A DNA stretch of 64,000 bases, from assembly GCA_042584585.1 (NCBI GenBank), contig JBHOSQ010000002.1, positions 32,001 to 96,000 of the forward strand. The letters run 5' to 3'. A program made the translations under genes and the position numbers. A model generated the notes under the pieces. It searched no databases. It was not told where the DNA came from and saw only the letters and a program-made list of their open reading frames with translations. Below are positions 1,241-63,478 of this stretch, piece by piece (position 1 is the stretch's first letter; every line of letters starts with the position of its first letter). This DNA is from an archaeon. Its GTDB lineage: Archaea > B1Sed10-29 > WALL01.

Positions 1241-2448
1241 GAACAAAAGGACAATTCTATATTTTGATTCTGGTGTTTATGATCTCGGTAGTCGTGGGGG
1301 TTGCTTACTTCACGACCGAGTCAAAACAACTGGAACAAGAAACGGACATCGAGCAGGAGCCAATGCTGCAGACGATTATGGACGGCTACGAGTCAGAGCT
1401 GAAGGCATCCATCGAAGGCGGGCTCTACAGCGGAAACCCCGCGTTCTACCAAGAGGTAGAGGCCAAGCTCACCACCCAAGCCGCCCAAAAAGGCTACGGG
1501 TTTACTTCTGACTGCACTCGGACCCCAATCAATAGCTACAGCGAGCAAATCGACTGTGACATCGAGCTCTCGGTGGGCGAGAACGTTTTGACGACGAGCT
1601 TTTCCCACACCTATGCCGTGGAATTCGGGATAGAGCTGTACGCGGACGAGGACTACACCCACAAAACCACTTACTACGCGCCCGGCGACACGATTTATTA
1701 CCGCGTGACGTCGCCCGCGCCCAGCGACACCAACGTGACCATCAACTACCCGGACGACCAGGAAAAAGAGAAGCAGGAAAAAAGCGGCACAGGCTTCGCG
1801 AACTTCGCTACGTTCGGAACCATTGACGTGGACGAGACCACGGGCGAGTGGGAAATATCGCTGGACAGCTCGGCCGACTCCATGAGCACAGCGTTTTACG
1901 TCCAGGAGTCCGTCGTCGACATCACCACGTACGACTCAAGCTGGATTCCCCAGGACACGTTCAACCGCGGCGAAGAAGTCAAGTACCGCATCGTCGTGTC
2001 GCCTTCCGCGAACGTTTACATGGACGTCACCGCCGGCGGGCAGGACAGGGACTACGACTGGTGGAGCGATGCCCCATCAACGCTGCACGAGTCCAGCTTT
2101 GTGGTGAGCTCGGTGGAGAGCTCGGGCACCGTTTTGACTTTGACGGCGATTGAGGACGGCTACTTCGGCGAGGCGTCGGTGAACATCACTGTTTTGTACG
2201 TGCCGTACGGCGCGTTCATTCCAGTGGACCTGGAGTACGAGCACGTTCCGTTTGACGCGTTCAAGACCTCGTGTGGGTACGAGGAGTGGTACGCCGGAAC
2301 CACGACTAACAACAGCGGCGTGCCGTTCGACTGCGTGCCGACGGGCGACGCGGTGGTGCGCGTTGCGAACGAAGTCGAAGTGATTAGTGTTCCACACGTT
2401 TACGCAGACAAACTCCATATTCTTAGCTCGAGGTGTGACGATTGCTGA
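1231..2448 (+). CDS. Large prepilin-like protein with Ig-like repeats, ending in a half beta-sandwich domain
   Basis: Leader TKG|QFYILILVFMISVVVGVAYF. Two similar Ig-like units (YYAPGDTIYYRV / TFNRGEEVKYRI). C-terminal FIPVDL...GVPF...DKLHIL segment (see findings). Confidence 0.8.
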   Translation: MEIGTKGQFYILILVFMISVVVGVAYFTTESKQLEQETDIEQEPMLQTIMDGYESELKASIEGGLYSGNPAFYQEVEAKLTTQAAQKGYGFTSDCTRTPINSYSEQIDCDIELSVGENVLTTSFSHTYAVEFGIELYADEDYTHKTTYYAPGDTIYYRVTSPAPSDTNVTINYPDDQEKEKQEKSGTGFANFATFGTIDVDETTGEWEISLDSSADSMSTAFYVQESVVDITTYDSSWIPQDTFNRGEEVKYRIVVSPSANVYMDVTAGGQDRDYDWWSDAPSTLHESSFVVSSVESSGTVLTLTAIEDGYFGEASVNITVLYVPYGAFIPVDLEYEHVPFDAFKTSCGYEEWYAGTTTNNSGVPFDCVPTGDAVVRVANEVEVISVPHVYADKLHILSSRCDDC

Positions 2449-2825
2449 AAGTAATTAGTGTATTGTTATTGGCAGCCCTTTTGGTTGGCTGTACAAACAC
2501 GGAGGAAGCCCCGGAGCCGACGGCAACGCTGGAGCCATTCGTGTCCCCCACGCCAGGGACATCAACAGCCACGGCAACACCAACAGCCACACCCGAGCCA
2601 ACGCCAATTCCCATTCCAACTAAAACATTCACCACGCAGTACGAAGTCTGTGAAGACCTTACTGAAACATGGTACTGCCTCACCGACAACGGCCTTGTGA
2701 CGTGCACGCTCACGGGCATCAACGCGCCGAGCTACACGCCCAGCGAAATCACAGTTACGTGCTTCAACTTCGACTCACTCGAAGAAACAGAAGAATTCGT
2801 TATACGTGTAGGTGATTCCCAATGA
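2442..2825 (+). CDS. Lipoprotein with Pro/Thr-rich linker and small Cys-containing domain
   Basis: Lipobox LLAALLVG|C. TATATPTATPEPTPIPIPT linker. TTG start preceded by GAGGTG. ATGA overlap with the next gene. Confidence 0.75.
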   Translation: MLKVISVLLLAALLVGCTNTEEAPEPTATLEPFVSPTPGTSTATATPTATPEPTPIPIPTKTFTTQYEVCEDLTETWYCLTDNGLVTCTLTGINAPSYTPSEITVTCFNFDSLEETEEFVIRVGDSQ

Positions 2826-5800
2826 AATGGCTCTTTGTTTTTGTTATAGCACTGCTATTGGTGACTGTGACAGTCGAGGCACTGGGCACGGAAATAACGC
2901 TCAAAACCAGCTACGCCAGCGCCGACTCGCCCGGGGGCGGCCCAGGCGCGAAAAACGTGTGGCGGGACCGCGATGGATTCTACCACATTATTTTCCATGA
3001 TGGCACGAACGACAAGCTCTACTATACTTACAGCACTTCAACCGAGCCGACGAGCGCGGCCCACTTCATTACGCCGGTAATCATCTTTAATAGCGCGGAG
3101 AGGGGCTCGATGTGGCTCGACGTCTCGAGTGGCATCATCCACCTCGCTTATGCCGAAGTAGACGCGAGCCCGAGGCTAGTCTACGCAAAATGCGACACTG
3201 ACGTCGGGTGCACTAGTGGCTGGACCTCGGTCGGCACAATTTACAACGGCCAGACCTATGGCTTGGCGAGCATCGTGTACCAGCAGTACACCGACATGGT
3301 AACGCACTACATAACGCACTTCGTCTACGTAAAAGACACACTGCGGTACCGGGTTTACTACCGGGATTACGACACCGCTAGAATCTCGCCGTACTGGGGC
3401 ACCGAGCAGATAGTCGACAACCTCCCGAGCGGCACCACGCAGCGCTACGTCCACCCCAGCATCGACAGGGACACCAGCGGAAGGATACACTTAGTCACCC
3501 GGACGTGGGTTGACGGCGGTGCACTCAGCACCAGAAAATGCTTGTACACCGCATCGACGGACGCCGGCCAGACCTGGAAAAACCTTGCCGGGTCAGTCGG
3601 GTACAACGACCTGCTCAGCAGCAACTACGTAGAAGCCTGCTCCATAAATGTCCCATCCCCCGCCAAAAGCTCGAGCTACCAAGTGCCACACGTCGCGATT
3701 GAAGGGGCCAGCAGCCACACCCAGTGGCACACGAAAGGAAGCGCGCTGACCGGAGGCACGTGGAGCACCCCATGGAGCTACTACACCAGCTATGCGAACT
3801 GGGGGAACCTAGGGAGCGACATCAACGGCAACACGTTTTATAGTTATTCTAGACGGAACGGCGTCGTCGGCTATGTCTACGCCAGGCAGCGAAACAACGC
3901 GGGGGCCTGGCAGACCCAAGACACACTACACGCCAGCGGCAACAGCGCGCACCAAGTGATGGAGGCGCACGCGCCGCTCTGCAGCCGGGGCGACATCGGC
4001 GTGCTCTACGGAGCCACGGGAACCAGCACCCTTTACTTCCGCACGATAGACGGCGCGTACAGCGAATGCAACACCCCGCCCACGCTCAGCAGTGTCACGG
4101 TCTCAACAGACCCAATCCAGGGTGGGGGCGAACAAACAGTGACTCCAAGCGGCCAAGGCGACGCGGACTCTGACCCGCTGAAGTTTGTATGCTGCATCGG
4201 AGAAGGAGCGTCATGCACGCCCACGACCGGGAACACCGTCTGTAATGAAGGGCAGACCACGTACTCATCCCCGTACTCGTCCATGACGTGCACGTACGAC
4301 GCTACTGCCGGGGCAACCCAAAGTGAAGCCGCGTACTGCCGCACGTACGACGGCACTGAATACCACATGGAAGTTGGTGGCGCAAACGACGCTTATGACG
4401 TTGACTCAGACGCGCCAGTGACGACTGACAACGGGGTCGCCGACAACTGTTACGGTGGGGACTGGAGCTTAACTCTCTCACCGACCGACGCTGGTGCCGC
4501 AAGCGTTGACTGGACCAAGTACTGCGTCGACGATGTGTCCAACGACTGCACGCCAAGCACGACTGGGACTTCGGTGCCAACTGACTGTGGCGCCGGCAAC
4601 GCGTGTGACGTCTACGTGCGCTACCAATCACAGGACACGGTCGGCAACCTTGAGAGCGTGAAGTCCAGTGGAAACATTAGCATCGACCGCGCGCCCCCGA
4701 ACCCGTCAAGCATCACTGGCATAGTGCCAAGCGCGGGCCAGCTCGCCGTTACCGCGTCGCAGGTTACGGACGTTGGGTGCTGGGGCGACAACTGGTACTA
4801 CTTTACTTGTGCATCCGGCGCGTGCAACGACCGGACATGGACACTGAACGACTGGACCCACACCGACGTGGGGCTCGCCCCAGCAACGGAATTCTGTTAC
4901 ACCATTACAGTGAGAGACGGCGCGACCAACACAGGCAGCGCGTCTTCACAAGTGTGTGGCATCACGCCCGGGAACCAGCCAACGAGCATGTCGGCGACTG
5001 CGTCCATAGCCGCGCCGCTTAACTCGGAAAGAGGCAACGTTGACTTGTCGTGGAGCGCGAACAGCAACCCCGGCGGAACTATATACTCAATAGAGCGCGA
5101 CCAGGCCTGGATTGCAAACACGACGAGCACGACGTATACTGACACGGCCGGCAGCGACAACACGGAGTACTGCTACCGCGTGCGCGCGGCGCACCCGAGT
5201 GGCTCATACGGAAGCTACAGCACGGAAGAGTGCGCGATGACCGCTGACCGCACTTCCCCCGCGACGCCCAGTCTGACTGCGGCCGCGGACAACGTGCTGA
5301 ACCAAGTAAACTTGAGTTGGGACCAGGGCGACGACAACTTGGTCGGCTACTGGCCGTTCGAGGAAGGCAGTGGCTCATCAACTGATGACTGGAGCCCGGC
5401 CGGCGGCGACGGCACGCTGCAGGGCCCGGACTGGATTAGTGGGCAATACGGGCGGGCGCTGGACTTCGTGCTCGCAAACACGGATTACGTTGACGTGCCT
5501 TCGGGGGCGTTGCTGGACCTAAGCGCCGGGACCAACAGCTTCACAATAGTCGGGTGGATAAATCCGGACCTGTCGCAAGACGTTGGGCCGATTATTTCCA
5601 CGAGGGACGTGATAAACGGCGTGGTGACCAAGGGCTACGGATTCGAGACCAACATAAACACCGCGAACGGCATGAAGGTGAACAGCCTACGGCTGGTGCT
5701 CGGCACTCCAGCGTGGAAGTGGAACGTGTGGGGCTCGGAAACAAACAGCCTCGTGCCGGGGTCGTGGCAGCACGTCGCGGTTGTGGTGACCGGCACTAAT

Positions 5801-8800
5801 ACGGCGTCGAAGACAGTGCAGTTCTACATCGACGGCGTCGAGTCCAATACATATTACTGGACAGCAAGCACAGAAACAGATGTATTGCTTTGGGGTGACA
5901 ATCCGTTGTCGAACCGCATCGGCGGGTACTATCCCGCGACTTACCCACCGTATGGCGTCGGCTACTTCGACGGAAGCATTGACGAGTTAAGGGTTTATGC
6001 CGGCAAAGCGTTCACGCAAGAAGAAATATTCAACGACATGGAGTCAGGGCTAATCACGCACGGCGTGCACAGGGGCGCGACTTCCTGGGAGTACGGGCCG
6101 GCCGACGGGCTAGCCGACAACTTCAGCGACGGAGACTACACAAATGACCCCACGTGGACCGTGCCCGTTGGCACCTGGGCCGTGAGCTCGGAAAAACTGA
6201 CACAATCATTCACGGGCGGCGGCTGGACAAAGATAACCGCCGGGAGCTCCAGTTGGGACGACTACGTGTTTTCTGTCAAAGTAAAGCCAACCACCATCAC
6301 TGAGACGTATCCAAACGTTGGTCTCATGTTGAGGGCGCAGAACTCTAACACGTACTACGGTATCTTCCACCACCAAGACGACAACACGTGGAGAGTTTAT
6401 GACTACCAAGATGCCGCGTACATATTCACGTCAAGCGCAATGAGCCTAGCCATGAACGAATGGCACGAGCTGAAGGCAAAAGTAGTGGGAGACAACCTCA
6501 AGTTCTATGTCGACGGAGTGCTGGTCGCGGACCTAACGGACAGCACAATGTCCACAGGGTACATCGGCCTGCTGACGCTGTACACCGCCGCAGAATTTGA
6601 CGACATCAAAGTAACACCGCTCATCGCTGACGACGAGTACGGGGACAGCGGCGCGGCAGATACCACTGCACCGAACAACGGCGCGACGCCCACGATTGAC
6701 CAAATCGCGATTAACAGCATGCGCGTGAACTGGGGCACGTCCGCGGACAACGGCAACACCTGGTACCACTACATCACGGCCTTCGACGACGAAGGCAACG
6801 AAGACAACATTTTCCACGACGGGGGATGCGAGAAGGGCACGAACCCATGCTACTTCAAGGCTGGGAGCCTCGTCAGCAGCGGGTACACAGTGGACAGCTC
6901 TGTCGCGTACACTGGTGGATACTCTGTCCGGCAGGACACCTCCTCAAGCACCAAGTACTTCGGCTCGGACTTCATCATAGGCACTGACATTGAGCCGAAC
7001 ACAGACTACATCGCAGAGTGCATGGTGAAGACTGCTTTGTCCGCGGGATACGCGAGGATATACCCAGAGCACCAGTTTACGACCCTGCACTTCAACAGTG
7101 TGAGCGGCACAACAGACTGGACGAGGATACACACGTCATTCACCTCCGGTGCCTCGGGCGACGTGCGCCTCCTCCGGTACACAATGGGGACCGCCACCGG
7201 CCAAACGTGGTGGGACGACTGCACGCTCCACAAGCTCACTGAGACCACAGTTACTACCGGCGTTGGCTCGGACGACTATTATGTCTACAACACAGTCGGC
7301 AGCGGCGATGGTGGGACGAACAGTAGTTGGCAGGCGACCCCCTACACCGACACCAGTCTGTCGGCTAACACTCAATACTGTTACAAGGTCCGCGCAAGAG
7401 ACAATGCGGGAACGCCGAATGTCGGCGACTTCGGCTCGCAGACGTGCAAATGGACCCTCCCGGAAGACCCTGACGCCATCTGCACGTCCGGCCACGTGGC
7501 TGGCACATGGAGCAGCAACAACGACCCCTCCTTCACCATCGACGGCGATGCAAACGCGTACCACTACGATTGGAACGGCGCGTCAAGCGACACGATTACC
7601 ACCGGTGACTCGACAATCACAAGCCCACACACGTTCACGGACACCGCGGACGGCACTTGGTACCTGCACCTCATAAGCGCGAACCCAGACGGCGCAGTCA
7701 ACCCCGGGGGCACGCAAACATTCTCGGTCGGCGGGTGGAAGATAGACGCCACTGCGCCGACATCAGTCAGCACAAGCGGGGGCACGGCGGGCTGGCAGAA
7801 CACCGCCGCAAGCGCGGGCGTCTCGTGCAGCGACGCGACCAGCGGGTGCGACACAAGCACTTATAGAGTATACAACCGCGGGAGCGCGGGGGCGTGTGAC
7901 ACCAACTACGCAACTTACACGCAAACAGTGCCGTACTCCGTCACGAGCCAGCAGTGGATATGCGCCGCGGCAAAAGACAACGCGGGCAACGTAAAGTACC
8001 AAGGCACCGCAACCGAGTTCCAGGTCGACATGCTTGACCCCACCACGAGCGACAACGCGGACACGGTGACGTGCCACAACATCGACCAAACAGTGACGCT
8101 GACTCCAGGAGACACCGGCGGGTCAGGGCTCGCGGACACTGATTACTGCGTTGACACCGGGAACTCTTGCACCCCGACCACAAGTGGCACAAGCGCGAGC
8201 GTCACGTGCGCCGACGGCGGCTATTGCCAGCAGTACGTGAGGTACTTCTCTACTGACACAGCGGGCAACACCGAGACAGTGAACTCCGTGGGCACCATAA
8301 AAATCGACAAGGCTCCGCCGAGCACGCCGAGCATCACCGTGATAACGCCCGGCAGCCAGCAAATTGCGCTCACGTCAAGCGTTGTGAGTGACGTTGGCTG
8401 TGAAGGCGGAGTACAGTACTACTTTGACTGCGTGTCCGGTGCTTGTAACGACCGGACCTGGGCGTCCGGGAACACTTACACCGACACTGGCTTGGCCGAT
8501 AATACTTACTACTGCTACAAAGTCAAGGCAAAAGACGCGAACAACAAAGAGACTGTGCTGTCCGCCCAACAATGCGCGTGGACCACCACTCCCGCGCCGA
8601 CGCTGGACTCCGTGACTGCGGAGGAGGACGGCCTGCTAGTCGCACAGAAGGACAGCCTTCTTATTGACTGGACAGGCAACGGCGCCACTTCGTACGACCT
8701 CGAGAGGACGACAGACACCACGACCGTTTACTCAGGCGGCAACACGGACTACACAGACCTAAACCTCGACGACAACAGCGAGTACTGCTACCACGTGCGG

Positions 8801-11800
8801 GGCGTTGACGGCGGAGGCACGCCAGGCAGCTGGTCAAGCACAGTGTGCGGGATTAATGCCGACCGCACCGGGCCCACGAGCCCGGTCTACAACGCGACCG
8901 GAACACAGGGCAATCCGGCGACTGACTGCGTGCACATTCTTGAAGAAAGGGGAGCGGTGGCGAGCGGCGTGTACTGGATTGACCCACTGCAGGACGGCGG
9001 GGGATTCGAAGTATACTGTGACATGCTTACTGACGGCGGCGGCTGGACGCTCGTGGACAACGACGCGGTCAACGCAGAAGTATTCCTTTCCCGTGAGCCA
9101 ATAGCGAACACCGACCCCGGAATAACAGCTGGCAAGTATTTGCAGGAGTGGGCGTGGGGCCCACAGCCAAGGCTCATGGTCAAGAGCTCAGTGTACAATG
9201 GAGACTTGAACTGGGTTACGTTGATTCCGTTGACTGCGTTTGCCAACGAGTACCCGACCGTGACCACTCAGCCGACCAGCGAGCCAGACGCGTGGGCGGC
9301 GGACAAGCTGAACGGCAACATGTGGAACGACGGCGGCTCCTGGATTTACTCCGGGTCAGGAAGGTTTGGCTCGGTGTGGATTGGGAACGGCGGCGCGCCC
9401 ACCGCAGCGTGCAACTACGCAAGCACGAAAGTGAGTGGGCTCGGCACGTACGCCAACGGTGACGTCTCGACGTGCTCTACTTGGGTGCGGCCGCGTGACC
9501 CACCAGTGCCCGCGAACAGTGTTTCGTTCGAGTGGACCCAGGGCGACTCGAACCTAGTGCTTTACATGCCGTTCGAGGAAGGCACTGGAGCGGCGACGGA
9601 CGACTGGAGTTCCAGCGAAAACGACGGCACGAAGATTGGGACCTGGACAACAGGGAATACAGACACATACACTGGAGGCGCACTGAACTTTGGCGGCAGT
9701 AGCGAGTATGTAAATATTCCGTACGACGCGAGCCTTGCACCCGACCAGCTGACGGTCATGGCGTGGTTCAACGCGGACGCCTTTGTCAACAACCAGAGAA
9801 TAGTCTCGAAGACAGAGGGTGGCGGATACCAGTTAAGCATTAACGAAGCGGCCTGCCCCGGAGAAGTATGCATGCTCGTCCATACTGGGAGCTATCACGT
9901 TGTCAGCTACGCACATTCAAACTTGAACACTGGCCAATGGCATCACATGACAGGAACATACGACGGCAGTACCGCGAAGCTGTACATAGACGGCGTTGAA
10001 GTAGACTCCAACTCAAACCCCAGCGGCAACATTGTGTACAACGCGAACAACCCCTTGTGCGTCGGGGCTGAAGCCACTTCAAACAGCTGCGGCGGCGGGT
10101 ACCAATTCCTTGGAGAAGTCGACGAAGTCCGCGTGTACGACACGGCACTCACGCAGCGCGAGATAATCGATGCGATGCAGTCGGGTGTAATAGGCCACGG
10201 AGTGCTGCGGGCCGACAACAATGCAGGAGGCGCCACGTACACGCCTGTCGGCGGGCTGATTAGCGCCACCAGCGGCACACTCGCGCCAGAAGACTATGTT
10301 CAAGACTTCTGGCTGGAGTTCGACTCCATGGAAGACGTGAGCGGCGGCGAGGCGTGGGAAGTGCAGTTCAAGGACGGTGGCGCCTTTGAGTACATTGTCG
10401 ACAGGACATCGCTCACCAATGTGCGGCTGCAGAACACTGCTTGCGGCGGCACGCAGCAATCATTCACCGCGCCAATCGGCCAAGGAGTGTGGGAAAACAT
10501 AGACATAATCAAGCACGGCGCCGACATTATGATTTATCAGGACAACGTATTCGTCGGCGAGACGACCCTCCAGTCCTGCAACGACCCATTCGACACAATC
10601 ACAATCAGCGGCGAAGGAATGAAGAACATCAGGCTCGTGCCGTTCAACTACGACAACGAGATTACCGACACGGTTGCAAAGGACGAGACCGGGCCCAACA
10701 CGCCAAGCGCGCCGACTGTCACGGCGGTGTCAACCAGCAGCCTGAGTGTTGATTGGACTGAGGTCACGGACAACGGCGACGACTGGTTCCACGTTGTTAC
10801 TGCATGGGACGACAACGGGAACGACGACAACATACTCAACAACTGGCCCAGCATCAAGGAGTACTACGGGCTTGCGGGATATCCCTTCTGGAGCGACGCC
10901 ACGCTCCGCAGCAGCGGGCGCGTTGAGCCCGGTGAAAGGATAATGATACAGTTCTACGAAAAGCTCCACCCCCTCTCGGCCGCGGACAGTGACTGGGTGA
11001 GCTGCTACATATATGAAACCGGGCCATGGGCAAACTCGTGCAGCGACTCAAGCGCCGCCACAACATGGGACTGGGGACAGTGCAACCGCATCGTGGGCAC
11101 TGGCGGCACGGACTACGTGGTCGGCTGCTACCACGGGCCCAACAACGAGCACACCGCAGACGGCGCATATGTGCGGGACCTACGGCTCCGCAAAGTCCAC
11201 GAGGAAACCGTCATCACAAACACAAAAGACTACTACGTCGCCGGGACGAGCCTGAACGCGTGGTACACGAGCGGCGCGCAGGCCGCGGGCAGCCTCTCGA
11301 GCAACACGCAGTACTGTTACACTGTCAAGGCGCGGGACAACGGGCTCAACGAGGGAACGGCGAGCGGCTCCGGGTGCAAGTACACCTTGCCGGTCGACCC
11401 GACGTTCTCGGTGAGCCACACCGCGAGCCAATGGAGCGCGGACGACACCGTGGAATTCACGGTCAGCAACTCGGACGGCGCTACTTACTACTACGTTTGG
11501 GACCAGAACCCGGGGACAAACCCAACCGGTGGGACCACGTGGGACGGGACACTGCTCACCAAGACCGCGACTGCGGACGGCAACAACTGGTACCTCCACG
11601 TTGTGGCGGAAAACCCGGACAACGCCCAAAACCCGAATGGCGCAGAGCACCTCGGGCCGTACTTCATTGACACGACCGGGCCGTCGAGTGTTAGTACAAC
11701 TGGCGCCCCGGCGGGATGGCAGAACACTGACGCCAGTGCGAGTGTTTCGTGCAGCGACGCGAGCAGCTTGTGCGACTCGGCGACTTACAGGGTTTACAAC

Positions 11801-12328
11801 CGCGGGTCGGCGGGGGCGTGCTCGACGACGTACGGCGACTACACGCAGACAGTGGCGTATTCAGTAACAAGCCAGCAATGGATTTGCGCGGCCGCGAAGG
11901 ACAACGTGGGCAACACCGCGTACCAGGCGACTGCCACGGAATTCATGGTCGACAAGACCGCGCCCGGCGCGCCTGCATTGACAGTGGTGCAGTACACCAG
12001 CGCGACGTGCCCAACGTTCCAGTGGGACGAGGCAGTCGACACCGGTGGCTCAGGAATAAAGGACTACGAGCTTGAGGTCGCGAGGGACAATAATACTTGG
12101 GTGACAGACCCGGTGGGGCTTGACAACGACGGGTTCGACACCGGGTGGATTGCGCAGGCGACGTACTGCAATGGTGTCTCGTGCTCGTACACCCCAAGCA
12201 CAACACACGAGTGCTCAGCAGGCATGTACGGCGGGGGGACTGCTTGCTTATGCCAGGGCGCATGGTACTGGAGAGTGAGGGCAAGGGACGCGTCACAAAA
12301 CGAGGGGCCTTGGGCAGAAGAAGAGTGA
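2822..12328 (+). CDS. Giant secreted adhesin 1 (3168 aa): N-terminal BNR/sialidase-like propeller, FN3/Ig repeats, 2 LamG, DUF1080-like, CBM-like and fibrinogen-related domains
   Basis: Sec signal MKWLFVFVIALLLVTVTVEA. Asp-box STDAGQTW. Repeated YCYxVxARD FN3 motifs. LamG motifs LVGYWPFEEG...WQHVAVV...FDGSIDELRVY. Fibrinogen-like SGVYWIDP...VYCDMLTDGGGWTLV. No C-terminal anchor. Confidence 0.9.
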   Translation: MKWLFVFVIALLLVTVTVEALGTEITLKTSYASADSPGGGPGAKNVWRDRDGFYHIIFHDGTNDKLYYTYSTSTEPTSAAHFITPVIIFNSAERGSMWLDVSSGIIHLAYAEVDASPRLVYAKCDTDVGCTSGWTSVGTIYNGQTYGLASIVYQQYTDMVTHYITHFVYVKDTLRYRVYYRDYDTARISPYWGTEQIVDNLPSGTTQRYVHPSIDRDTSGRIHLVTRTWVDGGALSTRKCLYTASTDAGQTWKNLAGSVGYNDLLSSNYVEACSINVPSPAKSSSYQVPHVAIEGASSHTQWHTKGSALTGGTWSTPWSYYTSYANWGNLGSDINGNTFYSYSRRNGVVGYVYARQRNNAGAWQTQDTLHASGNSAHQVMEAHAPLCSRGDIGVLYGATGTSTLYFRTIDGAYSECNTPPTLSSVTVSTDPIQGGGEQTVTPSGQGDADSDPLKFVCCIGEGASCTPTTGNTVCNEGQTTYSSPYSSMTCTYDATAGATQSEAAYCRTYDGTEYHMEVGGANDAYDVDSDAPVTTDNGVADNCYGGDWSLTLSPTDAGAASVDWTKYCVDDVSNDCTPSTTGTSVPTDCGAGNACDVYVRYQSQDTVGNLESVKSSGNISIDRAPPNPSSITGIVPSAGQLAVTASQVTDVGCWGDNWYYFTCASGACNDRTWTLNDWTHTDVGLAPATEFCYTITVRDGATNTGSASSQVCGITPGNQPTSMSATASIAAPLNSERGNVDLSWSANSNPGGTIYSIERDQAWIANTTSTTYTDTAGSDNTEYCYRVRAAHPSGSYGSYSTEECAMTADRTSPATPSLTAAADNVLNQVNLSWDQGDDNLVGYWPFEEGSGSSTDDWSPAGGDGTLQGPDWISGQYGRALDFVLANTDYVDVPSGALLDLSAGTNSFTIVGWINPDLSQDVGPIISTRDVINGVVTKGYGFETNINTANGMKVNSLRLVLGTPAWKWNVWGSETNSLVPGSWQHVAVVVTGTNTASKTVQFYIDGVESNTYYWTASTETDVLLWGDNPLSNRIGGYYPATYPPYGVGYFDGSIDELRVYAGKAFTQEEIFNDMESGLITHGVHRGATSWEYGPADGLADNFSDGDYTNDPTWTVPVGTWAVSSEKLTQSFTGGGWTKITAGSSSWDDYVFSVKVKPTTITETYPNVGLMLRAQNSNTYYGIFHHQDDNTWRVYDYQDAAYIFTSSAMSLAMNEWHELKAKVVGDNLKFYVDGVLVADLTDSTMSTGYIGLLTLYTAAEFDDIKVTPLIADDEYGDSGAADTTAPNNGATPTIDQIAINSMRVNWGTSADNGNTWYHYITAFDDEGNEDNIFHDGGCEKGTNPCYFKAGSLVSSGYTVDSSVAYTGGYSVRQDTSSSTKYFGSDFIIGTDIEPNTDYIAECMVKTALSAGYARIYPEHQFTTLHFNSVSGTTDWTRIHTSFTSGASGDVRLLRYTMGTATGQTWWDDCTLHKLTETTVTTGVGSDDYYVYNTVGSGDGGTNSSWQATPYTDTSLSANTQYCYKVRARDNAGTPNVGDFGSQTCKWTLPEDPDAICTSGHVAGTWSSNNDPSFTIDGDANAYHYDWNGASSDTITTGDSTITSPHTFTDTADGTWYLHLISANPDGAVNPGGTQTFSVGGWKIDATAPTSVSTSGGTAGWQNTAASAGVSCSDATSGCDTSTYRVYNRGSAGACDTNYATYTQTVPYSVTSQQWICAAAKDNAGNVKYQGTATEFQVDMLDPTTSDNADTVTCHNIDQTVTLTPGDTGGSGLADTDYCVDTGNSCTPTTSGTSASVTCADGGYCQQYVRYFSTDTAGNTETVNSVGTIKIDKAPPSTPSITVITPGSQQIALTSSVVSDVGCEGGVQYYFDCVSGACNDRTWASGNTYTDTGLADNTYYCYKVKAKDANNKETVLSAQQCAWTTTPAPTLDSVTAEEDGLLVAQKDSLLIDWTGNGATSYDLERTTDTTTVYSGGNTDYTDLNLDDNSEYCYHVRGVDGGGTPGSWSSTVCGINADRTGPTSPVYNATGTQGNPATDCVHILEERGAVASGVYWIDPLQDGGGFEVYCDMLTDGGGWTLVDNDAVNAEVFLSREPIANTDPGITAGKYLQEWAWGPQPRLMVKSSVYNGDLNWVTLIPLTAFANEYPTVTTQPTSEPDAWAADKLNGNMWNDGGSWIYSGSGRFGSVWIGNGGAPTAACNYASTKVSGLGTYANGDVSTCSTWVRPRDPPVPANSVSFEWTQGDSNLVLYMPFEEGTGAATDDWSSSENDGTKIGTWTTGNTDTYTGGALNFGGSSEYVNIPYDASLAPDQLTVMAWFNADAFVNNQRIVSKTEGGGYQLSINEAACPGEVCMLVHTGSYHVVSYAHSNLNTGQWHHMTGTYDGSTAKLYIDGVEVDSNSNPSGNIVYNANNPLCVGAEATSNSCGGGYQFLGEVDEVRVYDTALTQREIIDAMQSGVIGHGVLRADNNAGGATYTPVGGLISATSGTLAPEDYVQDFWLEFDSMEDVSGGEAWEVQFKDGGAFEYIVDRTSLTNVRLQNTACGGTQQSFTAPIGQGVWENIDIIKHGADIMIYQDNVFVGETTLQSCNDPFDTITISGEGMKNIRLVPFNYDNEITDTVAKDETGPNTPSAPTVTAVSTSSLSVDWTEVTDNGDDWFHVVTAWDDNGNDDNILNNWPSIKEYYGLAGYPFWSDATLRSSGRVEPGERIMIQFYEKLHPLSAADSDWVSCYIYETGPWANSCSDSSAATTWDWGQCNRIVGTGGTDYVVGCYHGPNNEHTADGAYVRDLRLRKVHEETVITNTKDYYVAGTSLNAWYTSGAQAAGSLSSNTQYCYTVKARDNGLNEGTASGSGCKYTLPVDPTFSVSHTASQWSADDTVEFTVSNSDGATYYYVWDQNPGTNPTGGTTWDGTLLTKTATADGNNWYLHVVAENPDNAQNPNGAEHLGPYFIDTTGPSSVSTTGAPAGWQNTDASASVSCSDASSLCDSATYRVYNRGSAGACSTTYGDYTQTVAYSVTSQQWICAAAKDNVGNTAYQATATEFMVDKTAPGAPALTVVQYTSATCPTFQWDEAVDTGGSGIKDYELEVARDNNTWVTDPVGLDNDGFDTGWIAQATYCNGVSCSYTPSTTHECSAGMYGGGTACLCQGAWYWRVRARDASQNEGPWAEEE
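7742..8030 (+). repeat. Intragenic ~290-bp domain duplication (second copy ~11666..11954)
   Basis: Both copies encode AGWQNT.ASA.VSCSDA.S.CD..TYRVYNRGSAGAC.T.Y..YTQTV.YSVTSQQWICAAAKDN.GN. Confidence 0.85.
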
Positions 12329-12332
12329 TACA

Positions 12333-12893
12333 ATGGCTAAGAAGAAAAAGATCAAGGTCGACCCCAAAGTTTGGTGGGTGGTCGGAGGAATAATAGTGGT
12401 TGCAGTCATAGCAGCGGCATTCCTCATGGCCAGCGACCAGGGAATAATCAAGCCAATCACGATTCCGGGGCTGCCCGCGGGCCCGGAGCAGCCAATAAAG
12501 CTGTGCGACTACAACGGCGTCTGTGACGGCGTGGAGACGCGCGAGTCGTGCCCCGAGGACTGCATCGAGCCGCAAGCGCTTTCAGTGGAACGGGACGAAG
12601 AGTCCCCTGTGACTGACTCGACGCCAACAGTCGAGATACTCATGGAAAGCGGGACCGGCGTCGCGTCTTGTGGGACGGGCACAAACGACGCCACGCAGTG
12701 GGAATGCGTTGTGGAGGAGCCGGGCGCAATCAGCACAATGGTGCGGTGCACGCTACTGAATTATCATTTTGACGGCAAGTACATGCTTGCCTTGCGGTGC
12801 AAGGACAACAACGGCGCTGACTTGCCCATGCAGCTCATTGACGACACAACGGTTTGTGCGGACCCCGTAACCGGATGCGGGAGGTGGCTCTAA
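12333..12893 (+). CDS. Membrane-anchored Cys-rich protein
   Basis: Basic N-terminus plus one TM helix (VWWVVGGIIVVAVIAAAFLM), a Pro-rich linker, a CDYNGVCDGVETRESCPEDC Cys repeat and an Ig-like C-terminal domain. It abuts the next gene. Confidence 0.75.
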   Translation: MAKKKKIKVDPKVWWVVGGIIVVAVIAAAFLMASDQGIIKPITIPGLPAGPEQPIKLCDYNGVCDGVETRESCPEDCIEPQALSVERDEESPVTDSTPTVEILMESGTGVASCGTGTNDATQWECVVEEPGAISTMVRCTLLNYHFDGKYMLALRCKDNNGADLPMQLIDDTTVCADPVTGCGRWL

Positions 12894-15800
12894 ATGAAGT
12901 ACGCCGCATTGTTCGCGCTGCTTTTGATGGTCAGCACAGCCTTTGGCTTATTGATAGTTGACTGGAGCCCGCCGGACGGGACCATAACGCTGTACGACAC
13001 ATGGAACCAAGATGTTAGCTACGGCAGGGGATGCAACAGCCCAATTTGTGATAACTACCCCCCGGGCGTGGACGGGCAGGTCACCGTGAACTTCACGAAC
13101 GTGACTGATGCATACGAAGGGCAAGCAGTCGCCGTGGCCGGACTGGAGAATTGTTGGATAACCGACTGTGAATTGCTGGACAAGACCGGCTGCCCGGCGT
13201 GCCCGTACGTGAGCTGCGAGGCGTATAGCCCGGACAACGCATTCTTTAACTACGGCGACCCCGTGGACGGGTCAAGCGTCGACTGGACCACCATTGAGGG
13301 CACCGGCGACCAATACGACACCCACTTGGCACACGAGCTTTGGACCGAGGGGCCCGGCACCGACTGGTCGCCATCATGGCCCACACTCCTCCCGCAACCG
13401 AACGAAGGCGTTAGGACGATTAAAGCAATTTGCGCAGACAAGGCGGGCAACATTGCCATCCAAATGCAAGACGACATTTATGGTGACTTTGTGGACCCAT
13501 ACGCCACGATTAGTTACAGCGGCGGATACCAATCAAGCACCAGCATAAGCATCACACAGACTGCCTCGGACCAAGGCAGGAGCCCACCACCGGACCCAAT
13601 AACACATGACACGCAACGGGACCGCGCCGTGATGGCGGACGGAGTGCTGGGAGCGTGGGAAGGCTGGTCCACCATTGACACCAGCGGCACGAACTTCAAT
13701 TGGGACGGGCCGGACTGCTACGGAGTCAAGCTCAGGTACCGCAGCCACGACGTTGCGGACAGGTATAGTGATTGGGAAGACCCAAGTATTACAGTATATA
13801 TAGATACTAACACCCCTGGTGCAGTTGGGTCGCTCACCTCGACCTCGCACCCCCTTGGCACCACTGCGTACGCGAACCAGACCGCGACATTCACGTGGAG
13901 CGACCCGCAGCCGTGCAGCGGGACGCAGTACTACGCGACCGCGGTGACGCAGAGCTCGTCGCACTCGTGGACTGGGACCGAGCCGACGTCGGCCGGCACG
14001 AGCAACGTGACGACCGGGTTGGCCGAAGGGACTTGGTACTTCCACATCCGGTCGCGGAACAACGCTGGCACGTGGGGGACCGCGGACTCGTTCATGATTA
14101 ACGTTGACTTGGGGGCGCCGACGCCGAACCCCGCGACGGTTGCGAGTGTGGTCGTGGACTCGGACACACAGGTGACTGTCACCGCGACCACGGCGACTGA
14201 TGCGTTCGCCCCGATTTATTACCGCGCGAACGAGACGACTGGAAACAGCGGCGGCACGAACTTCACGTGGCAGACAGGCACGTCGTTTGTTGACGGCGGG
14301 CTCGCAATAAGCACGCAGTACTGTTACATTGTCCAGTACAAGGACAAGTGGGACAACGAGGGCGCGTGGACCACGACACCAGTGTGTGACTACAGCAATG
14401 CAGCGGTGCCCGGGGCGCCGACAGTGACTCTCTTGCCAGAGAGCAGCCCATTGAACAGCGGGCTCACGATGGCGAACATCGTTATCGACGAGAACGGGAA
14501 CCCGGCCACAGTGCTCTACAACATAAAAGACGTGGCCACCGGACTCCACGTACAGGCGGACGGAACGCTTGGAGCCAGCGCAGCATGGATGAGTTATGTA
14601 AACTGGGGCGGCTCGAGCGGGATTGACGTAACGCTCGAGGACGATTTTGTGTACTCATTCGCTGTAAAGGCGAATGGGGGCGGAGGGGACTTCAGTGCTT
14701 ACGGACCGGCGATTACTGTGACAGCATTGGACAGAACCGGACCGTCGCCAGTGGACTTGACCGCGACAGCGGACATCGCAAACAACCGTGTCAACTTGAC
14801 GTGGCCGTGGGCAAGCGATGAGATAGCACCGGATATTGACTCCGGATTGGTTGGGCACTGGGAGCTGGAGGACAACACGCTTGACAGCTCAGGCAACGGG
14901 CACGATGGAACCAACCCACTGGGCATTTCATGGGTGGACGGGATACAGGGACAGGCGGGCCACTTCGTAAACGGCCGGACGGCGACGGACATAACCACTA
15001 ACTACTTGCCCTTGACGGTGAGTTTTTGGGTCAAGGAAGACGCAAACACATGGGAGTCCTCCGCCGCAATCGGAAAGCGCGACGGGTCTAGCGGGTGGAT
15101 GTTTTACCGCAATCCCACGTGGGGAGACGGCAACCTTGGGCTCTTGACCTATTACGTAAACACTGACCCCATCACCACAAGCTACATCAACTACGTTTAT
15201 GGGCTCAACGACGGCAATTGGCACCACATCGCGTTCACCATTGAGAACGGCGTGACGACGACTTACAAGGATGGCGTGCTGAACGAGCGGTACGTCATGC
15301 CTAACTTCGACTACTGGCTCAACAACTCCCAGGGCATAAGTCTTGGCTCCGAAAAGGCGGGTAGTGCGAGCTGGAACTTCGACGGGTACTTGGACGACAT
15401 GCGCGTGTACGACCGCTTGCTCACGGAAGACGAAATAAAGGCTTTGACACTCGTGGGGCAGTGGCACTTCGATGAAGGCACTGGCACGGACGCGTTCGAC
15501 GCGAGTGGGTTCGGAAACGATGGGACGATAACTGGAGCCACGTGGGCTGACGGCGTGCACGGCAGCGCGCTTGACTTTGACGGGGCTGGCGACTACATCG
15601 ACGCTGGCACCGGGAACGGCTTTAAGATGGAGGACGGCGCCTTCACGTTTGAGGCAATGGTCAAAAGCGATGGGGGGATTGAAGCTTCTCCAGTCATTAT
15701 GCAAAGAATGTATAACGGAGACTGCGGCGGCTCATCCAATAGCGATGCCATGCGGCTTGGGACCACCCACACAGCCGGCTCTGGCAACCCCGAGTACCCA

Positions 15801-18800
15801 CTGTTCTGGGTCAGGGACAAAAACGGCAACTCGGCGACCGCCACCTCAACCGTCGACATAAACGACGGCAAGTGGCACCACGTGGCAGGCGTGAGGACTT
15901 CTTCAACAATATACATTTACGTTGATGGAGTTGAGACAGGCACTGCCTCCGCAAGCAGCATCGGGGAGATCTGCCCAACAAACCCGTTTGTAATCGGCAG
16001 GCACAGCAGCTCAGCCCAGCGCTTCAACGGAAAAATTGATGAGGCACGCGTGTGGCGCAGGGCGTTGACAGCGTCGGAGCTGCAGTCGCGCGCTTGGTAC
16101 ATGCCGTTCAGGTCTGCGATGCTTGAAGCGAACTATGATGCAATCAAGGGCGCGGCCGACGACTTCAGTGACGGGGATTACACGAGCAATCCTGTGTGGA
16201 CGCCGGGCATCGGTGGGAGCACATGGGGCGTCGAGAATGGGCAAGTGTTTACACAAAGCACGACCGCCTCTGAAAGCTCGCTCACGCTCACAGAAAACAT
16301 CGCGGCGGGCGAGCCGTTCGTGATGACCGTGGACAAGGTCACTGACTGGGCTGAAACCGGAATCCATGGCGGAGGACATTACATACGGCAATACACCGCA
16401 GGCAATTACCAAGTCTCGGGAGTGACCATACCCCACGCCTATGCCCAGCACTGGCGGCTAGAGTTCGACGGCACGACGTACAGGTTCTACTTGAACGACG
16501 AATTAATCCGCGAGTGGGCAGGCAGCAGTAACGGAATATTCGACCTTTATGACGACAGGAACGCTGCGAGTGGCAAAGTGTACTACGACAACGTCAAGGT
16601 TTATTCGCTGCAGGGCAACAGCTACGAGGACACTGACGCAAGCGACACCGAAGCGCCCGACACGCCAGGCGCGCCGACGCTCACCGCGTACAGCACTTCC
16701 ATACTAGGAGTCGCGTGGACAGGTGTGAGTGACACCGGCAACGACTGGTTCCACTTTGTCAAGGCGTTTGACACAACTGGGAACGAAGACAATTACCACC
16801 CGAGCAACGGGCTGGTCAGCTACTGGCCGCTCGGCGACGGGAGCACGGGCAGCGCAGACGGCGCGGTGACGCTGAACCGCGAGAGCACGGACCACGGAAC
16901 TGTGTACGGCGCGACGTGGGTCGATGGCGAGTACGGTAGTGCATTGGACTTCGACGGCGCCGACGACTACGTCACCATCGCCAACACGCACGCATTCGCG
17001 AACGACGACTTTAGTTATACCTTGTGGTTCAAGGCGGACACGCCGCAGGACAACTGGCAGGGCATTATGCTCCAGAACAACTACCACACCGGCGCGCCGA
17101 ACACGTTCTTCGTAGCCGCAATCAGGGGCACGAACGACCCGCCGAACCAGGACAAGGTGCAGGTGTACGACAGGTACAACGGCATCAACGTCGCCGACTA
17201 CTCGGACGGGCTTTACACCGACGGCGAGTGGCACCACTTGGCGGTCACTTATGACCGTGACGGCATGAGGCGGTTCTACATAGACGGCGCGTTCCAAAAA
17301 GAGACAGACATAAGCCCGCACATCGCCATCGCGTTCCAGACCGCGCCGCTGCAATTGGGGCGGGACCTCACTGGCGCACAAGGCGGAACCACCGGTGGAG
17401 TATACGCGTACGATGGCTCGCTCGACGAGATATTGATGTACAGCCGCGTCTTAACACCTGAAGAAGTCGCGGGCATCTACCACCGCGGCTTGATACAGCA
17501 AAGCACGGTCACGACCGGGATTAATGACTACTACGTGAACGGCACCTCACTGGACCAGTGGTACACCACATCACCGCAGAACGCGACCAGCCTCGGTACG
17601 AACACGCGGCACTGCTACAACATAACGGCGAGGGACAACGCGCTTAACGTCGGCAACGTGGGCGGCACGCAGTGCAACTACACGCTCGCGGTCAAGCCAA
17701 GCATCCTGGCTGGGTCCATGGTCTGCGACGGCAACACCAGCAGCGGGTACAAGTGTGACGTTCCCTTCAGTATGGGCGACAACCCGCTTTATACAGAGTA
17801 TTATATAACCGCGACGAGCACCGACGGCGGAACAGGATTCACGGACTCTGGGTGGATTACGGTAAGGGAGACCTATGTTGATACGGGCCTCGACCCGCAC
17901 AAGACGTACTGCTACAAAATCAACGCGAGAAACGGCGACGGAACACTCACCGGCCAGTACACCCAGGTGTGCAAGACCGTAGCCAACAACGTGCCAACGC
18001 TGGGGAGCGCGACCGGCAACACGGATCCAATCAAGGGTACGGCCCAGCAGACGCTTACAATCGGCGGGGTTGACGACCTGGACCAGGAATTGCTATACAT
18101 CCACTGCTGTACGGACGAGGCCAACACGTGCACGCCAACTAACATCAACGACGTGTGCAGCAGCAACGATGCCCATCCATACTCGTCGCTGTCTTGCTCG
18201 TATGCCACTGGTGGCGTGACGACTCGGACCGAATACGTGCGGTGCGTCACAAACGACACTCATGACGTTTCCACGCCGGTGACGAGCGACTCTTACCTCG
18301 TTGACTCGGTTGCGCCGACGACGACGGACAACCACAGCGCTGGCAGCTGCAACGCCGTCGACCAAGTCGTGAGCCTTTCTGCTGGCGACGATGTTGGAGG
18401 AGTCGGCGTGGACTCGACGCTGTACTGCGTGGACACGGCAAACACTTGCAACCCTGTGACAAGCTATTCGGCTCCGGTGACAGTGACTTGCTCGGCAGGC
18501 ACCGCGTGCACCAAGTACTTGAGGTACAACTCAAGTGACGTGGTGGACAACCAGGAAACGGTCAACAGCGCTGCCGTCCAAATCGACAAGTCCAATCCAG
18601 ACGACGGCGTGATAGCGAACATTGTGTCGCTCGGCACGGACAGCCTTAGGGTCACGGCCACCGCGGGCACAGACGACGGGTGCGGAAACTCGAGCCTGCA
18701 GTACTACTTCACCTGCCAATCCGGCGCGTGCAACGATGGCACGTGGCAAAGCGGATTGGTTTATGACGACAGTGGGCTGTCGCCGGCGACTGAGTATTGT

Positions 18801-21800
18801 TACAGTGTCAAGGTCCGGGACGACGCCGGCAACGAAGGCGCGGACTCCGCGGACACGTGTGCGTACACCGACGCGAGCGTGCCGACGATGGACTCCATCA
18901 CGGCAGAGGGCACGCCGCTTAACTCTGGAATCGGGCGAGTGGAAGTCAACTGGAGTGGCAACCCAGCCGGAACTGACTACGAAGTGCAGCGCGACAAGTT
19001 CTTGACGAGGTACAGCGGAACAAACACGGCTTATACTGACACTGGACTGGACAACACATGGTACTGCTACCGCGTGCGGGCCCAGCCGTCGGGAGGCTCG
19101 TGGAGCGGCTGGAGCAACGAATTGTGCACGGTTACTTTGGACAGGACTGGGCCGTCGCCGCCGAACTTGACTGCGACGCCGGACAACGTGAACAACCGCG
19201 TTGACTTGGACTGGACGTGGGCGAACGACGAAATCGCGCCGGACATTGACAGCGGAATGGTCGGGCACTGGAGGTTCGAGGAGGGCAGCGGCATAGCGAC
19301 ATATGACTCATCAGGAAGCAACATCGATGGGACTATAGTCGGCACCCCACAATGGGTTACAGGCCTAGCAGGCAACGCAGTCCAGCTGGACAACAGCTAC
19401 ATCAATCTCGGGGACGCTCCAACACTAGACATAGCTACTGAACTCACTTTATCCATGTGGGTGAAGCCAGATGCGTTTGTTGTGGACAAGTTCCTGTTCG
19501 GCGGCTCATGGAGTTACCACGGCTATTCCCTGCGCTTCGATGATGCCGATAACTCGCAGCTGGAATGGTATGTTGGTGACGGAAGCGCGTATCATTTCTT
19601 CACCTACCCCCACGGCATGGTAACAGGAAAGTGGTACAATATCGTATGCACTTATGACGGAACCGAAGGCAAGGTGTTCGTGAACGGGAACCTGATTGGC
19701 TCAAGAATCGAGCCGTTCATACCGGACGGCGCGTACATACAGGACCACGTGATTGGCACGGACGGAAGCAAGGCAAAACACTTCACTGGAACCATGGACG
19801 ACGTTCGCGTGTACAACCGCGCGCTCACCGACGAAGAGGTGAAGTGGCTGACTCTCGTCGGCCAATGGCACTTCGATGAAGGCACTGGCACGGACGCGTT
19901 CGACGCGACTGGGTTCGGAAACGACGGATCGTTTGTTGGTGACCCCGCGTGGACTGATGGCGTGCACAACACGGCGCTTGAGTTCGACGGAAGCAACTAC
20001 GTCAGCGCTGGAAGCAGCGAAGCCTTGAACCCGAGACAGCAGGGGTGGACCGCAGAAATGATGGTCAAGTCAACCCAGAAGAGCGGGGGCAACGGCGGCT
20101 ACATACGTGTCATGGGAAGGTACGAAGCAGGAGACTACTGGCTGCTCAGGACCCACACGAGCAGTGGTGACTACCCTGTGTTCCAGATAACTGATGGGAG
20201 TAACTCTGCCGGTGTCGCGGGCACTACAACCGTCACCGACGGCGTGTGGCACCACCTAGCGTTTGTGTATGACTACGACGACTCAAGGACATACATCTAC
20301 ATAGACGGAGTTGAAGACGCGGCCAACGATTGGACTGGAACCTCAATGGGGGACATCAACCCAAGCACTGCCCTCCAAATTGGTCAATCACAAGCAGCCA
20401 ATGAAGGATACAGCGGCAAAATCGACGAAGTCCGCGTGTGGAGAAGGGCATTGACCGCGGCAGAGATACAGGCACGGGCGAAGTACGGGCTGTATCGGGC
20501 TGCGGCGCTTGACGGGGCATACGAGCCAGTTGACGGGCTGTGGGATGACTTCGATGGCGCGGCTGTGGACACGGCTACGTGGACCGAACTAACTACCAAC
20601 GACGCATCCATAACAGTGTCCAACAGCGAAGTAACACTCGACGACAATACGGGGATAGCCCACCTAACCACACAAGAAAACTTTGGGGTGTATGGAACAC
20701 TTGAGTTCGACCTCAAGGCAAACACTCCCGAGCCGGGGTCCACTTGGTACAGAATAGCCAAAGTCCCAAACACGTTCTATGTCGACGCCGGCAACATTTT
20801 CTCTATATGGATGACCGGTGGAGTTCAGCTTGGCATAGTAAACGACTACGAATTCCATAACTGGAAGTTCACTTTGGACGGGACGCACATACGGGTTGTC
20901 TACGACGGCAACGTGATATACACGGCGGACCAGGCCAGCAGCCTGGGGACCATCCGCTTGGGCAACGACTTCAGTACCGAACACGGGAACATGGTGTTCA
21001 AAAACGTTAAGTTCACGCCGCTGATTAGCACGAACACATACCAAGACACTGGCGCGAGCGACACGGCAGGGCCGAACACTCCTGCAGCGCCGACTGTATT
21101 GCCCATCAACAGCACCGCAATGCAGGCCTCGTGGAGTGGAGTGGGAGACGTCGGCACCGGGTGGTGGCACTACGTCAAGGCGTTTGACTCGGAAGGCAAC
21201 GAAGACAATTATCACGACAGCAGCGAGCTCATTGGCTACTGGCCGTTCAGTGAAGGCAGCACGGGAAGCGCGGACGGAGTGACGACGTATGACTCCGTTG
21301 GCACCAACGAGGGCACGGTAAGCGGTGCGGCGTGGGCAACAGGCGCTTACGGCACAGCACTTGATTTCACTGGCGGAAACACAGACAAAGTAGCACTGGC
21401 CACTCCCCTCACCCAAACAGTGTGGAGCACGACCTTCTGGGCGCGGCAAGACGCCGGGGCAGACATCAAGGGAATGATAATGGGCGACACCAGCAACACA
21501 ATCAGCTTCATATGGTTCTGGGAAGGCAGCTACTTCAGGTTCAGGTCCAACAGTGGCACTCTCGACTGGCCAGAGCTGACCGACTTCACGACGATGGCCC
21601 ATTATGCACTCGTGAGCGACGGCGTTAGTGTAACGCTGTACAAGAACGGCGTGCAAGTCGGCAGCCCCCAGACGCCGGCATCAACAGAATTCACGGTAAA
21701 TGCGATTGGACAGGGGTACAACAACATTGACTATTCGTTTGACGGCGTGATTGACGAAGTGATGGTATACGACCGCGTGCTCACCGACGATGAAGTGGTA

Positions 21801-55708: not shown

Positions 55709-55746
55709 ACTCCCTTGGAACCGGAGCAACCCGGGTTTTAACCGGA

Positions 55747-55768
55747 GGATAAGCCAATTGGCTTATCC
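55747..55768. repeat. 22-bp perfect palindrome GGATAAGCCAATTGGCTTATCC
   Basis: Read directly. Intergenic and followed by a T-run, so possibly a terminator or protein-binding site. Confidence 0.85.
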
Positions 55769-55822
55769 CCCACTTGGGTTCTTTTTGTAACGGTTGAATC
55801 TATTTCTCCAGAGGGCAAATTG

Positions 55823-55830
55823 TTTATATA
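55823..55830 (+). promoter_or_regulatory. TATA box (TTTATATA)
   Basis: About 24 nt upstream of GTG 55854. Confidence 0.65.
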
Positions 55831-55853
55831 CTCTATTACCTAATTGAAGTCAG

Positions 55854-63414: not shown

Positions 63415-63421
63415 CCCCTTA

Positions 63422-63429: not shown

Positions 63430-63478
63430 CTGTTTGTCATTAATTGTTGCAATCGGTTACTTATAGAGGGTAATATAA

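Follow-up and report, generated by a model that had tools for sequence, protein, structure and literature searches.

Can two very large secreted proteins, encoded by separate genes, share a single folded domain? The question is raised by a 64,000-nucleotide stretch of archaeal DNA (the window; positions 32,001 to 96,000 of contig JBHOSQ010000002.1, assembly GCA_042584585.1, lineage B1Sed10-29; WALL01), in which two giant open reading frames (ORFs) follow each other on the plus strand. All coordinates below are positions in this window. The genome it belongs to is ~1 Mb and 84% complete, and archaeal hallmarks in the window include a deoxyhypusine-synthase-like ORF and T2SSE and T2SSF genes. 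Giant 1 (modules LamG, FN3, Ig-like and fibrinogen-C-like) and giant 2 (LamG repeats, FN3 and DUF2341) flank a 186-residue ORF, and the three genes are tightly packed, as in an operon: a 4-nucleotide gap separates the giant 1 TGA from the small ORF, whose own TAA abuts the giant 2 ATG. A first-pass annotation of this DNA had proposed that giant 1 ends in an FN3 domain without its last strand and that giant 2 supplies one. From the comparisons reported here, one domain, nicked in strand G, would be divided between the two proteins, half of it being the final FN3 of giant 1 and the other half the nine residues with which mature giant 2 begins. We put at roughly 0.6 the probability that strand complementation between the two molecules restores this nicked FN3 and links them in a finite, ordered chain.

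The acceptor half would be the C-terminus of giant 1, which reads ...CLCQGAWYWRVRARDASQNEGPWAEEE before a TGA at 12326-12328. Its terminal domain is recognizable as an FN3 through strands A-C, which match titin FN3s with an E-value of 6e-10 (phmmer against PDB sequences; query residues 5-52). Of 153 unrelated database proteins outside the family, 50 had domains of this subtype, 255 hits in all; the 139 that were full length gave a profile of 106 positions, whose consensus ends ...GNWGAWSAVRSFTIDTTAPA. Aligned to this hidden Markov model, giant 1 reaches position 94 of 106 with two residues left, so that the protein ends at ~96. All five C-termini of the family (P0001, P0004, P0015, P0017 and P0022) behave alike, aligning to positions 93-95 with two residues over and stopping at ~96-97. 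A full seven-strand FN3 is found in none of the five, since profile positions 97-101 (SFTID) are absent from each; what the acceptors lack is SFTID together with the TTAP(A) linker. Giant 1 still has some three residues of strand G (EEE), so the strand is nicked and not wholly absent. The annotated loss of the last strand therefore holds as a truncation, at five of five ends, and not as a complete absence. As a control, five of the 255 non-family domains lie at most 25 residues from a protein end, and strand G is complete in all five, which makes the mid-strand ending peculiar to this family.

At the other side of the junction, giant 2 begins with MKYAALFALLLMVSTAFG and continues LLIVDWSPPDG. 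Both giants carry signal peptides with n-, h- and c-regions and an A-x-G/A site; by eye, neither has a K/R-G-hydrophobic prepilin motif, and neither start is a class III (prepilin) signal peptide. The predicted cleavage site of giant 2 is a canonical A-x-G, assigned by eye from the -3/-1 rule, and cleavage there would place LLIVDWSPP at the mature N-terminus. The first-pass annotation had likened this start to strands that close domains within both giants, and the likeness was borne out. All five motifs quoted for those strands (YDVDSDAP, ISIDRAPP, WKIDATAP, FMVDKTAP and INVDLGAP) were found in the giants. In 500 shuffles, the pattern h.[VIL]D...P, where h is hydrophobic, averaged 0.47 occurrences for giant 1 (maximum 3) and 0.73 for giant 2 (maximum 4); the actual sequences hold seven and six, respectively. 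Scored against profile positions 97-105, LLIVDWSPP reaches 7.8 bits and falls within the top 0.067% of 405,082 9-mers taken from the ORFs of the genome. The strict form xLxVD[WFY]xxP was observed once in 2638 six-frame genome ORFs (at least 100 residues), at the N-terminus of giant 2. The N-terminus of giant 1 has no donor motif.

The two ends also agree in register. The aspartate of the h-x-h-D motif stands 25 residues past the tryptophan of strand F in nine of ten complete domains. Giant 1 gives 21 residues of this distance (through offset 20) and LLIVD the next five, which puts the aspartate at 25 and the proline at 29. In the profile, the end of giant 1 at ~96 is followed by LLIVDWSPP at 97-105 with no gap and no overlap.

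We then asked how far this arrangement extends beyond the window. Two genomes carry the family, that of the window (G000) and a congener (G002), which are the only ones found with the small protein (2 of 41 genomes), the acceptor FN3 (2 of 31) and the giant 2 N-terminal module (2 of 41). Besides the five acceptor ends, there are seven donor starts (P0003, P0014-P0018 and P0022). Three proteins, P0015, P0017 and P0022, carry both ends and are called middle links here; in such a link, the module that opens giant 2 is joined to the pair of domains that closes giant 1. The chain of the congener is ordered as giant, small protein, 527-residue link, small protein and 1097-residue tail, with two junctions. 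Its giant ends ...CLCQGKWVWRVRARDNALAPGPWAQEI, the link starts ...MASA YLTVDWSIP and ends ...CQGKWVWRVRAQDTAGNWGNWATSTT, and the tail, which starts ...GAFA ALIVDFTAP, has an end like that of giant 2. The aspartate of the first junction falls in the same register as in giants 1 and 2, and the second junction gives 26. Further ends were read from P0016 (2399 residues, start ...AFA YLVVDFTPP), P0017 (546 residues, start ...AFA YLVVDWTPP, end ...GAYTTSTT) and P0022 (1570 residues, start ...ASA YESFIVDTLAP, end ...GSWAQEI). In all seven donor sequences the signal peptide, with its predicted cleavage, ends AFG, AFA or ASA and is followed by x-L-x-V-D; the seven 9-mers score 6.4-16.5 bits against profile positions 97-105 (top 0.14% to 0.0015% of genome 9-mers). 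Across six donor sequences that are 38-68% identical to giant 2, L20, V22, D23, P27 and G29 are invariant, the first four falling where the canonical strand faces the core or passes into the linker. In the acceptor, the block CQGxWxWRV is among the most conserved stretches.

Could the break be nothing but an error or a decayed gene? Giant repetitive genes from metagenome bins are prone to mis-assembly, and a sequencing error or pseudogene break in one long gene would have much the same look. This is hardly credible here: the same break, with an intact gene of 175-201 residues and a signal peptide, recurs twice in the second genome and also in other database proteins, each giant has a long open frame, and read-through of the giant 1 TGA, tried as a candidate and rejected, adds only three codons before a TAA.

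No fused form was found in the collections searched. A profile of the N-terminal module gave 407 hits in 1.84 billion representative proteins. In the best 150 of these and in the 41 genomes, no N1 module follows a complete FN3 within a longer protein, and in the genomes the N1-N2 module occurs nowhere other than at ORF starts. Full N1-N2 matches came from five proteins, P0016 and P0017 being two newly found ones, and always began at residues 1-7, among the matches listed. Scans of metagenome contigs with the small-protein and middle-link alignments found no relatives, a scan of genome contigs gave the congener and, beyond it, nothing but matches limited to the Cys motif, and a homolog search with P0017 returned P0017 itself from 8000 candidates. 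P0005, a distant and partial relative, has the Ig+FN3 pair in one piece: its strand G is complete, and a different domain comes next.

P0005 is one of several observations in favor of the main rival, by which a single giant was cut by a stop, a small gene and a new signal peptide, and the pieces now act separately. The FN3 would then be stabilized by its own Cys-bearing and acidic loops, while LLIVDWSPP would pack on N1 or suit signal-peptide processing. An exact register is what fission leaves behind, the acceptor loops are absent from all complete domains among 170 proteins, and a weak structural model pairs the stump with strand F. However, a relic of this kind fits poorly with the lack of drift at 38-50% identity, where the tail keeps 21-22 residues and three residues precede VD in six of seven donors. 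The invariant residues of the donors coincide exactly with the positions at which a strand G faces the core, and 13 internal junctions in the giants place h-x-V-D, by homology, in the preceding and not the following domain. The same domain type is, moreover, complete at the ends of other proteins in five of five cases. We therefore consider fission without rejoining unlikely, at perhaps a quarter of the weight, and favor strand complementation between the giants.

The loops themselves can be read in two ways. Among the 170 proteins, the motifs TH.C..G..GG and C[QE]G.W.W were confined to the five truncated FN3s, and four of those five have the acidic pattern D.[VT]G.D[ND]DG. In the FN3 topology, the C-C' and E-F loops sit at the C-terminal pole, beside the site of the missing half-strand and linker. 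Judged from their position, the acidic and Cys-bearing loops of the acceptor may clamp the donated strand, or may equally replace it. Separately, the acceptor loop DPVGxDNDGxD (12107-12139) resembles a DxDxDG calcium-binding loop, and a calcium-binding role for DPVGLDNDGFD would be a guess from that look. In archaeal cannulae, calcium is reported to be part of the strand-complementation assembly.

The first-pass annotation moved directly from one giant to the other and overlooked the 186-residue ORF between them, inside the very interval it described, and this gene changes the picture of assembly and anchoring. Its product combines a basic N-terminus and a single transmembrane helix with a Pro-rich linker, a CxxxGxCxxxExxxxCPxDC knot and an Ig-like domain; Pfam gave no hit for it, and the ESM Atlas none that was usable. 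Every junction seen holds such a gene, one in G000 and two in G002, and the family has eight members of two subtypes. Subtype 1 ends GCGxW... and is found in junctions of the form ...WA[EQ]E[EI] stop / donor VDW, while subtype 2 ends GCMR and is found in the junction ...TSTT stop / donor VDF. This pairing of end type, subtype and donor is seen directly at three junctions and is consistent with P0016, P0017, P0169 and P0170. The source and contig figures of P0169 (subtype 1) and P0170 (subtype 2) are identical to those of P0017, which suggests that the three represent a third locus with two junctions. Read from these ends, the pattern fits an ordered chain whose middle link would be unable to bind itself; one old tandem duplication of the junction would give the same pattern and would yield precisely this kind of middle link.

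It is also conceivable, if improbable, that the small membrane protein is the real partner of the FN3, the donor strand or both, in which case the junction would be a membrane anchor of three parts with the giants extending out of it, and not a direct strand joint between them. There is one gene per junction (one in G000, two in G002 and two inferred on the P0017 contig), the two subtypes follow the two junction types, and no membrane anchor was seen in the translation of either giant. On the other hand, the Ig-like domain looks complete by eye, with no free strand, the N-terminus is cytoplasmic, and co-inheritance through tandem duplication explains the one-per-junction count. Speculatively, the small membrane-anchored Ig-like protein probably either anchors a joint made by the giants themselves or serves as a membrane-bound chaperone for the unfinished FN3 until the donor arrives. 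We also observed that the small protein and giant 2 share a frame in the window, separated by the single TAA that abuts the ATG (12891-12896). A read-through fusion of the two was considered and rejected: the frames differ in the congener, so the shared frame is taken as coincidence.

Returning to complementation between the giants, the assembly might proceed as follows. Both giants would be exported by Sec, as their signal peptides indicate, and signal peptidase I (SPI) would leave giant 2 with x-L-x-V-D-[W/F]-x-x-P exposed as its new start. This donor strand would lie beside strand F of the giant 1 FN3, fill core positions 22 and 24 and extend the EEE stump, with the acidic and Cys-bearing loops at the docking pole perhaps, speculatively, clamping it. 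In this way the giants would be held head to tail without a covalent bond, much as pilus subunits are by donor-strand complementation. Giant 1 is acceptor-only and giant 2 donor-only, so the assembly in the window would be a finite one of two pieces and ~7,200 residues; in the relatives, a middle link with both ends would extend it to three. The propeller tip that had been placed on giant 1 was not seen at its N-terminus by Pfam or PDB sequence search. A broader version, that this is a natural split-domain connector in which separately exported giants are snapped together through nicked FN3s, with two orthogonal junction types (WAxEx/VDW and TSTT/VDF) that fix the order and prevent self-polymerization and a dedicated membrane-anchored Ig-like chaperone or anchor for each, is a tentative proposal that we hold to be possible but rather doubtful. 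On that version, donor-strand complementation would be a modular 'Lego' joint for heteromeric giants and not a means of polymerizing pilins.

Several points weigh against strand complementation between the giants. Support for it is comparative, at the level of sequence, and the predicted structures do not help: AlphaFold2 gave a mean predicted local distance difference test (pLDDT) score of 46.2 for giant 1 residues 2945-3168 (3-row alignment) and 30.4 for mature giant 2 residues 19-339 (6-row alignment), both too low to use. The weak acceptor model (pLDDT 46) already pairs the stump PWAEEE with strand F, and the Cys-bearing loop could replace the lost half-strand, leaving an FN3 stable by itself. 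LLIVD, for its part, may pack on giant 2's own N1 domain, for which the giant 2 N-terminal profile found no match among PDB sequences. The cleavage site is a prediction by eye from the -3/-1 rule. The family is small, being confined to one genus among the genomes examined plus a few metagenome proteins, so its instances are kin and not independent. Finally, the middle link, the second small gene and the pairing pattern could stem from one old tandem duplication, without any binding. The head-to-tail joint first annotated is thus partly supported, with strong comparative backing (register, conservation, double-ended proteins and no fused form in the collections searched). We regard the split joint as a real, conserved sequence feature, and the core idea as well supported by comparison, though unproven.

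The features of the junction and its surroundings are collected in Table 1.

Table 1. Features of the two-giant locus, in window coordinates
Feature	Position	Strand	Remarks
Giant 1	2822..12328	+	3168 residues; Sec-type signal peptide; putative acceptor-only chain end (ORF, translation, Pfam)
Terminal FN3 (candidate acceptor)	11957..12325	+	Giant 1 residues 3046-3168; break inside strand G
DPVGLDNDGFD acidic insertion after strand C	12107..12139	+	In 4/5 acceptor FN3s (strict pattern)
Cys-bearing E-F loop THECSAGMYGGGTACLCQG, just before strand F	12203..12259	+	Only in the 5 truncated terminal FN3s (170 proteins)
Strand F WYWRVRARD	12263..12289	+	Sequence/profile alignment
F-G loop and first strand G residues ASQNEGPWAEEE, then TGA	12290..12328	+	Ends at offset 20 from the strand F W
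Small junction protein	12333..12893	+	186 residues
Giant 2	12894..25199	+	4101 residues; putative donor strand, no acceptor end; would be the other chain terminus
Giant 2 signal peptide MKYAALFALLLMVSTAFG	12894..12947	+	Predicted cut after A-F-G
Putative donor strand and linker LLIVDWSPP	12948..12974	+	Profile positions 97-105 (consensus SFTIDTTAP)
N1 and N2 domains of giant 2	12975..13808	+	Residues 28-305; always after the donor strand; only at protein N-termini
Ferredoxin-fused T2SSE-type ATPase and two T2SSF platform genes	25563..28784	+	Pfam, ORF translations

Around the giants, T2SSE ATPase and T2SSF platform genes stand near pilin-like genes, as in an archaeal type IV pilus-like locus. 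The downstream Pfam matches are T2SSE (PF00437, E 5e-38) and T2SSF (PF00482, E 7e-8 and 5e-7), ORFs with pilin-like N-termini (judged by eye) lie upstream at 360..2448, and the order of ATPase, platform and pilin-like genes around the giants is the same in the congener. Directly upstream of giant 1 (360-2825), three ORFs have a short basic N-terminus followed by a hydrophobic stretch and look pilin-like, e.g. MEIGTKGQFYILILVF. One pilin-like ORF there, of 405 residues, is conserved in the congener, and a 127-residue ORF has a lipobox-like LVGC. The ATPase ORF (25563-27212) carries an N-terminal 4Fe-4S ferredoxin-like domain (Fer4 E 2e-11; T2SSE E 5e-38), a fusion that seemed unusual to us; its ferredoxin-type N-terminus CSHCNACVE.CPHKANFEC is also present in a 568-residue ORF of the congener.

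Other observations concern the far end of giant 2 and the wider window. The tail proteins (giant 2 at 25000-25199, P0014 and P0016) share a conserved, beta-rich C-terminal ending, ...KIVDEVWFATKDKWQVNAITVERA and relatives, which in giant 2 comes after its Pfam DUF2341 and LamG-type modules. On the minus strand, 31412-36070 encodes a secreted protein of 1552 residues with a C-terminal transmembrane helix; its counterpart in the congener (1532 residues) adjoins the locus and has the same N- and C-termini. Three more giant ORFs occupy 48065-64000, of 2547 residues, 2514 residues and a third that runs off the window (2374 residues in the genome). Their N-termini are alike, of the form ...EEKWY.LLD..D.KG[IV]P[IV]..., and lack a signal peptide; on both grounds they belong to a family other than that of giants 1 and 2. 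Immediately next to the tail gene in the congener (G002 L005 3954-4910) lies a 318-residue ORF that by eye is of TnpB/IS605-OrfB type, with a zinc-finger-like CSVCGH...CKSC near its C-terminus; the window has no counterpart at that place.

How does this joint compare with known systems? Donor-strand complementation is known as a way to polymerize small pilins. In the chaperone-usher pili (Fim, Pap), an Ig-type fold without its last strand is completed by the N-terminal extension of the next subunit, a donor with alternating hydrophobic residues, and tip or terminator subunits have one of the two features. The giants resemble this at the level of sequence only, with an incomplete Ig-type fold and an N-terminal donor on the next protein. 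They differ in being multi-domain subunits of several thousand residues in which strand G lacks its C-terminal half and nothing more, in that their chain would have two or three pieces, and in belonging to an archaeon with a single membrane. Pfam found no PapD-like chaperone, usher or fimbrial families in the giants, the small protein or eight neighboring ORFs.

Archaeal threads are closer in some respects. As reported (PMC9715654), the thread protein Saci_0406 is exported by Sec and has an N-terminal donor strand exposed by SPI, no dedicated chaperone is required, and the cap protein Saci_0405, with a donor and no acceptor, is comparable to giant 2. Threads, however, are long homopolymeric filaments of small subunits, whereas the locus described here would give an ordered hetero-assembly of giants through a split FN3; its architecture, with giants that have each end type once, speaks against a homopolymer. 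Donor-strand logic is also reported for cannulae, bundling pili, tafi and TasA. The Elr (WxL) pilus of E. faecalis is reported to have an operon-encoded, membrane-anchored chaperone, ElrE, that primes subunits by strand complementation in a cell with no outer membrane, and ElrE is a possible analogue of the 186-residue junction protein. The Elr system differs in its domain families (WxL, DUF916/DUF3324) and in being a polymer with sortase anchoring, and the locus is not expected to be related to it in sequence. As the defining components of these donor-strand systems are absent from the locus, it is not a member of their families.

Engineered split domains offer a second comparison. SpyTag/SpyCatcher (from CnaB2) and split GFP 1-10/11 are beta-rich domains cut within or before the last strand, whose parts re-associate spontaneously. 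They are man-made, and SpyTag locks by an isopeptide bond, for which there is no indication at the joint of giants 1 and 2. A literature search returned no description of a split FN3 or Ig domain shared by adjacent giant genes, which is not proof that none exists. Set against the known donor-strand systems, the locus would stand apart in that it joins unlike giants, cuts a standard FN3 within a strand and makes a finite chain. If this is correct, donor-strand complementation would also link unlike proteins of several thousand residues each in a set order, and it would explain how a ~1 Mb DPANN-type archaeon builds a surface structure longer than any single exported gene product. Such surface structures are thought to mediate attachment to host cells. 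Similar joints could be sought by a simple rule, a C-terminal domain that stops mid-strand and a missing strand at the next mature N-terminus. Where the engineered pairs are man-made, a 125-residue FN3 and its 9-residue tag would be a natural, possibly orthogonal connector pair.

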